A stretch of 64,000 nucleotides of DNA from an uncultured archaeon (GCA_902384555.1 CABMCD010000002.1:1151-65150); one strand, 5' to 3'. Positions 62,252 through 63,325 are shown, counted from the first letter of the stretch. Notes: generated by a model not told the origin, from the letters alone. Made by a program: numbers and translations.

Positions 62252-63325
62252 ATGATGGCCTTTCAGGTCTGGCCGATTATCGCCAAGAAAGGAGAGACAC
62301 CAGTCGTCCAGTCGGAATTGAAGCTCCTCTACTCCCAAAGATTTGTCCCGGGCCAGCAGACGGAAATTGAGCTGAACCCCAACAATGTGCTCAATGTGGG
62401 CCATCCCGGCAAGTTCGAGAAGCTTCGGTTCACCGTCAACCAGATTATTCTGCGCCCGATGTGGGCAAGCGGCGAAGACCCCAGCCAGAAACTGCCGGAC
62501 AAATCGTCCCCTTCGGCCACCGTGGAATTCAGGCCGTTCAACCCGCAACTGGGCCAGTACGATTCGAGCGAGGGCGCCTTCCTGTCGATGGATGCGGGCG
62601 CCTTCCTGCAGCCGAATACTGCGCCACCGAACAGCCTGTCCCTCGCATTTGACTTTGGATATTGTGACGGGACAAACTGCATGAGCAGGCCGGGCGGGCG
62701 CGTGGACCTCCAATCCGTGAAATTCATTGACGACCCGCTCAACCCGGCCTACAGGTCAAGATTGTCGTCGCTTTATCCGGACCCCATGCCGGCCCAAAAG
62801 GTGCTGGATTCCATCAGCTATGAGGGGGAAATCAGGGATGCCTGGCTGAGTTTCGGCGATTCGGAGCGCGAAAGGCTTATCGCCGCCCTCCACGGCCCCG
62901 AAGGGTCGGTGGAAGTGGCCACCACGTATGGAATGAGGCTGATTTTTGACAAGAAGGCCGACGGCATGGTCGAAATTTTCGCAAGAGGGATGGAGGCCCG
63001 GATGGACGTGTGGCTGTATGACGAATGGCTGCCTTCTTCCACATCGGTGCAAACGCAAGACGTTCCGGCAGAGCGGATGGCTCGGATTTACCCCAACCCG
63101 TCAGATGGTCGGTTCAGCATCAGCATCGGGAATGCAAATCCGGCCAAGGTGCATATGGAGCTGTTCTCACTGTTCGGGAAAAAAGTGGATGAGAAGGATT
63201 ATGGGCAGATGGAAAGTTTCGCCGTGTGCGCATACCACAACCCCCAGTTGGCCTCCGGTGCTTACCTGCTTCGGGTTCAGGCGGGCGAGCAAGCTTGGAC
63301 GCAGACCATCGCGATTGTGAAATAG
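62252..63325 (+). CDS. Hypothetical protein ending in a T9SS type-A sorting-domain-like module
   Basis: IYPNP...ELFSLFGKKV...LASGAYLLRV...TQTIAIVK at the extreme C-terminus; no N-terminal signal peptide. Confidence 0.7.
   Translation: MMAFQVWPIIAKKGETPVVQSELKLLYSQRFVPGQQTEIELNPNNVLNVGHPGKFEKLRFTVNQIILRPMWASGEDPSQKLPDKSSPSATVEFRPFNPQLGQYDSSEGAFLSMDAGAFLQPNTAPPNSLSLAFDFGYCDGTNCMSRPGGRVDLQSVKFIDDPLNPAYRSRLSSLYPDPMPAQKVLDSISYEGEIRDAWLSFGDSERERLIAALHGPEGSVEVATTYGMRLIFDKKADGMVEIFARGMEARMDVWLYDEWLPSSTSVQTQDVPAERMARIYPNPSDGRFSISIGNANPAKVHMELFSLFGKKVDEKDYGQMESFAVCAYHNPQLASGAYLLRVQAGEQAWTQTIAIVK

Follow-up and report, generated by a model that had tools for sequence, protein, structure and literature searches.

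What is the sorting domain of a bacterial outer-membrane secretion system doing at the end of an archaeal protein, and does it do anything there at all? T9SS C-terminal domains count as a hallmark of outer-membrane secretion in Bacteroidota and the FCB group, and Micrarchaeota have a single membrane. The gene that raises this question encodes a protein of 357 residues and lies near the end of a 64,000-nt stretch of DNA, here called the window, from whose first nucleotide all positions without a contig label are counted. The window corresponds to C2:1151-65150 of an 83,463-bp contig, along which GC content is uniform, and the contig belongs to the 1.30-Mb, 92%-complete MAG of a tiny, symbiotic-type archaeon of the Micrarchaeota (DPANN).

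A full-text literature search found no published description of a T9SS tail domain in archaea. In a review of T9SS effectors, type-A tails are described only in Bacteroidota, with five motifs and a seven-strand Ig-like fold (PMC10202324). A preliminary description of the present locus offered three readings of its tail, namely, a repurposed Ig-like module, a decoy for a bacterial T9SS, and a gene remnant. Here, we examine the gene, its surroundings (Table 1), and its counterparts in related genomes, and we report that it is a further instance of a recurrent, undescribed DPANN phenomenon.

Table 1. Features of the window around the 357-residue gene and further tail-bearing ORFs of the same genome
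Feature	Coordinates	Strand	Evidence or remarks
flpA, fibrillarin-like rRNA/tRNA 2'-O-methyltransferase, upstream neighbor	61524..62198	+	PF01269 E 1.2e-83; NF003276 249 bits vs cut-off 113
TATA-like box TTATAA, candidate promoter of a leaderless mRNA	62224..62229	+	-28 to -23 from ATG 62252, read from sequence
Left indel junction, 11-mer CTGGCTCCCGC	62232..62242	.	In L010 continues straight into TGAGAACAATTTTTTCAAGG
CDS, 357-aa orphan protein with T9SS-type tail	62252..63325, including stop codon	+	ORF listing
N-terminal passenger, residues 1-278, no detectable homologue	62252..63085	+	Sequence searches
Type-A T9SS-style C-terminal domain, beta-sandwich, residues 279-357	63086..63322	+	PF18962, TIGR04183, AF2, Foldseek
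Right indel junction CCTTCCGCTAAGAACAATTTTTT, homology with L010 resumes	63332..63352	.	Sequence and alignment
Hairpin copy 1, candidate structured RNA	63353..63444	- (inferred)	Direct repeat D1; MFE -47 kcal/mol, z -7.6 on minus strand
Hairpin copy 2, conserved across genus	63450..63541	- (inferred)	Repeat, folding, genus comparison
ArsR-like winged-helix (wHTH) gene	63643..63999	-	NF033788 E 1e-6, PF03965 E 1e-4
Tail ORF, 503 aa	C27:66015-67526		Above Pfam cut-off; plausible signal peptide
Tail ORF, 272 aa	C18:52272-53090		Below Pfam cut-off
Tail ORF, 1691 aa	C18:54944-60019		Below Pfam cut-off
T9SS-like tail ORF, 680 aa	C24:79244-81283		Lineage HMM only

A T9SS-type tail on an orphan protein

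Residues 279 to 357 are a genuine member of the Por_Secre_tail family and form a seven-strand Ig-like beta-sandwich. PF18962 matches residues 279 to 355 over its full length (model positions 1-75 of 75; E 2.6e-8, 34.5 bits versus a cut-off of 27), TIGR04183 matches the tail at 30.3 bits (cut-off 23), and the PF18962 match ends 2 residues before the stop codon, which places the domain at the extreme C-terminus. Both profile scans, which had been suggested as checks, are thus above their curated cut-offs. The motifs on which the preliminary description based its reading of the last ~80 residues as a Por secretion tail are all present as well, namely, YPNP (Y280-P-N-P283), G-K-x-V (G309-K-K-V312), L-x-S-G-x-Y (L333-A-S-G-A-Y338, including S335-GAY338), and the terminal K (K357), and they align with those of 30 Micrarchaeota tails and with the NucA tail.

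The AF2 model of the tail has pLDDT values of 88 to 97 and seven strands, which fall within residues 277 to 355. Its top Foldseek match is 8glk_D (TM 0.83, rmsd 3.0, 32% identity), which is the NucA tail as solved inside the Flavobacterium johnsoniae T9SS translocon. A phmmer search of PDB sequences with the tail recovered the same chain (E 4.8e-7) together with the GH167 tail 9whd (E 6.6e-5), and a profile of 31 Micrarchaeota tails matches 8glk_D, 8glj_D, the mirolase tail, and the gingipain tail. The window tail and the type-A tails of Bacteroidota (NucA, 8GLK chain D; mirolase, 8QB1; gingipain RgpB, 5HFS) therefore belong to one sequence family, sharing the PNP, G-x-x-V, and SG-x-Y motifs, the C-terminal K, the seven-strand Ig-like fold, and the extreme C-terminal position.

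By word search, the only near relative of the tail is its own protein. A pattern scan of genome contigs returned only Bacteroidota tails, at 25 to 32% identity, and identity to other Micrarchaeota tails is 15 to 26%. The window tail is of a 'YPNPSDG' flavor, which is Flavobacteriia-type, whereas many of its Micrarchaeota relatives are of a 'QNYPNPFN' flavor.

The gene as a whole is a lineage-specific orphan and, as we read it, a real protein-coding gene. An exhaustive phmmer search of 1.84 billion (1.84e9) representative proteins found no homologue of the N-terminal passenger but itself, and in a word-index search of 5.8e9 proteins, the 357-residue protein found itself alone. Pfam, NCBIfam, PHROGs, and PADLOC scans gave no match in the passenger, tblastn and blastn found no passenger paralogue in the same genome, and the passenger proved unrelated to the 11 other Micrarchaeota tail proteins with which it was compared pairwise. 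The gene has no orthologue, and none of the other six genus genomes contains it. In the AF2 model, the passenger has pLDDT values of 20 to 78, with no alignment depth in that region; Foldseek matches outside the tail had rmsd values of 12 to 23 and were discarded as meaningless.

The codon-usage score of the ORF is 0.18 in frame, compared with 0.24 +/- 0.16 in long ORFs of the genome, and the other five frames score from -0.02 to -0.76. The score is even over all 357 codons, at 0.12 to 0.24 per 90-codon window, and GC3 is 0.725 versus 0.75 in the genome.

Start codon, promoter, and N-terminus

The ORF begins with ATG 62252, 53 nt downstream of the flpA stop codon, while an in-frame TTG at 62219 would extend the protein by 11 residues to 368 aa. 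Genome-wide, TATA-like hexamers are enriched between -32 and -20 before first ATGs (10.7% versus 1 to 4% at other distances), and the TTATAA box upstream of ATG 62252 would be the promoter of the gene. ATG 62252 is favored over TTG 62219 because the spacing of this box has the geometry of leaderless archaeal mRNAs. Judging from the sequence, the transcript is probably a leaderless mRNA driven by the TATA box ~25 nt upstream. A search for RNA runs returned none.

Signal peptides were called by sequence inspection and by mean Kyte-Doolittle hydropathy over 12 residues. The N-terminus of the ATG-start protein, MMAFQVWPIIAKKGE, has neither an n-region nor a signal peptide by inspection and hydropathy. 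The TTG-start N-terminus, MDYKPGSRPCFMMAFQVWPIIAKK, combines a basic n-region with a hydrophobic stretch of 13 residues that is broken by Gln, Trp, and Pro, and its mean hydropathy is 1.74, versus 2.1 to 2.5 in the clear signal peptides of relatives (12-residue means). This N-terminus is signal-like, marginally at best. The earlier claim that the protein has no Sec signal peptide thus holds for a start at ATG 62252, and it needs qualifying by this marginal stretch for a start at TTG 62219. Also, the 357-residue protein contains no N-glycosylation sequon, and since it has neither a sequon nor a signal peptide, a surface location is unsupported.

A one-gene indel beside flpA

Profile matches confirm the placement of the ORF in the preliminary description, between a fibrillarin gene (PF01269) and a wHTH gene, the latter ArsR-like and on the minus strand. 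The relatives of flpA are all from Candidatus Micrarchaeota MAGs, and the closest, at 84% identity, lies at locus L010. There, a fibrillarin gene is followed by a short spacer, one 92-nt hairpin copy, and the wHTH gene, with no gene in between. Homology between the window and L010 ends at the flpA stop codon and restarts at ~63338. The only local alignment between the intergenic regions of the two is the 11-mer of the left junction; what follows it directly in L010 is the sequence that is found after the 357-residue gene in the window. ATG 62252 is only 9 nt inside this inferred junction.

The gene is an indel of ~1.1 kb that comprises one gene, with both flanks syntenic with L010. It is most probably a gain in the lineage of the window and not a loss in L010, since the gene turns up neither in the other genus genomes nor among the 1.84e9 representative proteins. 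A 22-bp target duplication was looked for at the gene ends and was not found; only two short repeats are present there, one direct and imperfect (7 nt, CTCCCGC / CTTCCGC) and one inverted (8 nt, CCCGCCCT / AGGGCGGG), neither of them beyond chance. The T6 run in the right junction may be a terminator.

Several other features of the neighborhood were recorded. Two tandem hairpins of ~92 nt, 91% identical to each other, lie between the 357-residue gene and the wHTH gene, and the element extends to ~63600. Their folding z-scores go down to -7.6, with the minus strand favored, and they are kept in six of the seven genus genomes, always adjoining the wHTH gene. The hairpin core, GGTGTGGGAGGTG, is invariant, and its minus strand, CACCTCCCACACC, includes an anti-Shine-Dalgarno-like CACCUCC. 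The outer stem has compensatory changes in every lineage, with both sides altered in 5 of the 17 predicted pairs. Searches found no Rfam family for the element and no other copy of it in the genome, and no C/D-box or H/ACA features were seen by eye. The hairpins are candidates for a new structured RNA.

The true start of the wHTH gene is probably beyond the end of the window, and its orthologue in L010 encodes 138 aa. Besides its ArsR/SmtB matches, the wHTH protein has weak PADLOC matches to Csa3-type CRISPR-associated regulators (E 2e-4), and in relatives, the wHTH gene is followed by a gene for an XPF/Hef-like nuclease. Directly upstream of flpA is a glycan-biosynthesis cluster (57399-61451, minus strand) with genes for an RGP-like (reversibly glycosylated polypeptide family) glycosyltransferase, a GT2 enzyme, a class I methyltransferase, and an acyltransferase_3 membrane protein; the RGP-family match is unusual for an archaeon.

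T9SS machinery in the host lineage

A search for T9SS core genes, which the preliminary description had proposed, found none. SprA (TIGR04189) is present in 0 of 7 genus genomes, and in a positive control, it was recovered from 3 of 3 Bacteroidota genomes at 1400 to 2600 bits. PorV (NF033710) is present in 0 of 7 genus genomes and 0 of 42 family genomes. PorU (NF033707) is likewise present in 0 of 7 genomes of the genus, where the only matches are of 16 bits and fall on PorU's own tail region. A 699-aa ORF on C23 with a weak PorU match was rejected as a sortase; it encodes an ordinary surface glycoprotein of archaeal type, rich in sequons and equipped with a Thr/Pro linker and a membrane anchor at its C-terminus. 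The absence of SprA, PorV, and PorU from the 92%-complete genome is strongly indicated.

Because both the signal peptide and the machinery were tested for and neither was found, the 357-residue protein is not a T9SS cargo, and for want of both, the tail cannot act through a T9SS in its host. Its setting therefore differs from that of Bacteroidota cargo: the host is a monoderm-type DPANN archaeon without SprA, PorV, or PorU, a Sec signal peptide is missing from the protein, and the passenger is an orphan.

Tails on unrelated proteins across the family

The picture of an isolated oddity, as the gene first appeared, does not survive comparison with related genomes, since tails occur on unrelated proteins in 28 of the 42 genomes of the window's family (the 28 counted from rows of the table for the order, and the family size of 42 taken from a separate listing). 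Across the order, PF18962 matches are found in 43 of 151 genomes, so that tail-positive genomes make up 67% of the family versus 14% of the rest of the order. All seven genomes of the genus are tail-positive, with one to seven copies each, and many of the copies in the order-wide search lie on contigs of 50 to 500 kb.

The genome-wide count that had been suggested gave two tails above the PF18962 cut-off in the window's own genome (the window gene and the C27 protein), two C-terminal copies below it, both on C18, and a fifth candidate on C24 that was found only by a lineage-specific HMM. Of the proteins encoded by the four further ORFs, the one on C27 alone begins with a plausible signal peptide.

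The other Micrarchaeota tail proteins (loci L021-L049) have the same C-terminal domain, range from small to giant, are mostly unannotated, and come from genomes without a T9SS. In 15 of 15 tail proteins read, the domain is the very last element. The passengers, evident orthologues and paralogues apart, are mutually unrelated, and those of L021-L049 are unrelated to the window passenger. Clear Sec signal peptides were seen in L042, L044a/b, L035, L036, and L046/L048, and probably in the C27 protein. The window gene, both C18 proteins, L026, L040, L034, and L049/L045 have none, and about half of the tail bearers examined are without a signal peptide. For instance, L049:1489-2268 (minus strand) and L045:952-1761 (plus strand), from another genus of the same family, encode ~260-aa orthologues that are 45% identical over their full length and that have neither a signal peptide nor any hydrophobic segment. 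Because these signal-less proteins are kept between genomes, a missing signal peptide, common as it is, is compatible with conservation.

A second group allows selection to be examined. L044:409-1740 and 1801-3204 (on a 518-kb contig), L042:466-1740, and L046/L048 form a ~430-aa family whose members combine a classical signal peptide with a passenger and a tail of the canonical 'QNYPNPFN...KMxLxK' form, and one genome has a tandem duplicate. Tail omega in this family is 0.03 to 0.18, which indicates purifying selection, in tests that comprise two gene pairs with few substitutions. Between the G013 and G017 orthologues, Nei-Gojobori omega is 0.029 in the tail (8 synonymous, 1 nonsynonymous) and 0.157 in the passenger (21 synonymous, 13 nonsynonymous); between the tandem paralogues of G091, it is 0.176 in the tail and 0.227 in the passenger. 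Since the tail is constrained at least as much as the passenger in both pairs, it is not a vestige in these archaea. Moreover, selection on the tail in genomes without the T9SS parts that were tested points to an intrinsic function beyond T9SS targeting or to capture by another system.

A comparison can be made with the PGF-CTERM substrates of archaeosortase ArtA, in which a C-terminal element is likewise common to unrelated proteins of one lineage; the sorting-signal reading discussed below takes this as its functional model. PGF-CTERM consists of a short motif, a transmembrane helix, and a basic tail, and it is processed by a known enzyme. The window tail is different in being a soluble beta-sandwich of 80 residues without a known processing enzyme.

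What the tail may do

We lean, if only by a little, toward the view that this is a real orphan gene with a T9SS-independent C-terminal docking or binding tail and that it represents a lineage-specific single-gene insertion. Tail-bearing genes would have been acquired long ago from bacteria of the FCB group (Fibrobacterota-Chlorobiota-Bacteroidota), and the beta-sandwich would have been retained at the C-terminus for docking or binding and passed by shuffling to variable passengers. In each protein, the tail might then tether the variable N-terminal passenger to a partner protein or to an envelope component.

Docking independent of a T9SS is suggested because the tails are pooled in one family, always C-terminal, attached to unrelated and fast-evolving proteins, and under purifying selection wherever this is testable. 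The age of the transfer is supported by fully ameliorated codon usage and by the existence of the two tail flavors ('YPNPSDG' and 'QNYPNPFN'). Among the three readings first offered, the repurposed Ig-like module fits best. For the 357-residue protein itself, the data show the identity and fold of the tail, the lack of T9SS components in the genome, the orphan status, the indel, and the native codon usage, and from these we infer the docking role, the direction of the indel, the expression, and the cellular location.

The main rival, which we consider unlikely and yet worth taking seriously, is that the gene is a decaying or young nonfunctional copy. A tail gene, or its 3' part, would have been dropped beside flpA without the 5' end that encodes a signal peptide, and the ORF would still be open because the event is recent. 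Such an origin would accommodate a protein without a signal peptide or sequons, a passenger without a homologue anywhere searched, a gene that is missing from all six other genus genomes, and a start codon that falls 9 nt inside the inferred left junction. However, the codon-usage signal is uniform over all 357 codons, at 0.12 to 0.24 per window, and looks like that of a living gene. The tail is intact, with a full-length model match, the TATA-like box is at the distance preferred in the genome, and other signal-less tail proteins are conserved between genomes. The gene remnant of the preliminary description persists as the chief competitor of the docking tail, weakened by the codon usage along the whole ORF.

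Less probable again, and in our view a long way from likely, is that the tail is a working C-terminal sorting signal for an undiscovered archaeal machinery that serves export, surface attachment, or host delivery and is T9SS-independent and sometimes Sec-independent. In favor of this reading, every protein checked has the tail strictly at its extreme C-terminus, purifying selection acts on the tail no less strongly than on the passenger, about half of the bearers have no signal peptide of any kind and yet are conserved, and the tail is enriched in one family (67% versus 14% in the rest of the order). Nevertheless, no candidate reader or processing enzyme was found, the C-terminal placement could be an inheritance from the bacterial donors, and a selected Ig-like domain need not be a signal.

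It is very unlikely that the 357-residue protein acts as a decoy or hijacker aimed at the PorV/SprA of a diderm bacterium, whether a neighbor or the host. The tail is no more distant from those of Bacteroidota (25 to 32% identity) than from those of other Micrarchaeota (15 to 26%), but the reading of T9SS tails takes place in the periplasm of bacteria, and a signal-less, cytoplasmic archaeal protein has no evident route there and could hardly reach it. The known hosts of Micrarchaeota are wall-less Thermoplasmatales, which have no outer membrane. No supporting context was found, and with no evidence in its favor, we set this second suggestion of the preliminary description aside.

The least probable explanation, which we regard as barely credible, is an assembly chimera or contamination in which a 1.1-kb bacterial piece was mis-joined into the archaeal contig: the flpA junction is not covered by any read or unitig of the public runs searched, but codon usage and GC3 are native to the host genome, the sequence on either side is collinear with L010, a related MAG in which the gene is missing, so that the join would have to fall exactly inside the intergenic spacer, and the passenger has no bacterial homologue. 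Low-coverage public runs contain two identical 151-nt unitigs only, at 62360-62510 and 63216-63366, of which the latter (from another run, X2) spans the stop codon and the right junction. Contig integrity, which had been put forward as a check, is thus supported by the synteny of both flanks and by this unitig.

Implications

Archaeal tails offer T9SS research a natural test of what the tail does alone. The window gene adds an extreme case, in which an orphan passenger goes with a missing signal peptide. It also adds a clean one-gene indel and, as a side result, a conserved candidate for a structured RNA beside it. If the sorting-signal reading were true, DPANN episymbionts would have a one-step signal for export, surface docking, or host delivery. 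Such a signal would serve interchangeable, fast-evolving passengers and would need no outer membrane, and it would be Sec-free in about half of its bearers, the window gene included. For DPANN biology more broadly, the tail proteins are candidate tools of cell-cell contact.
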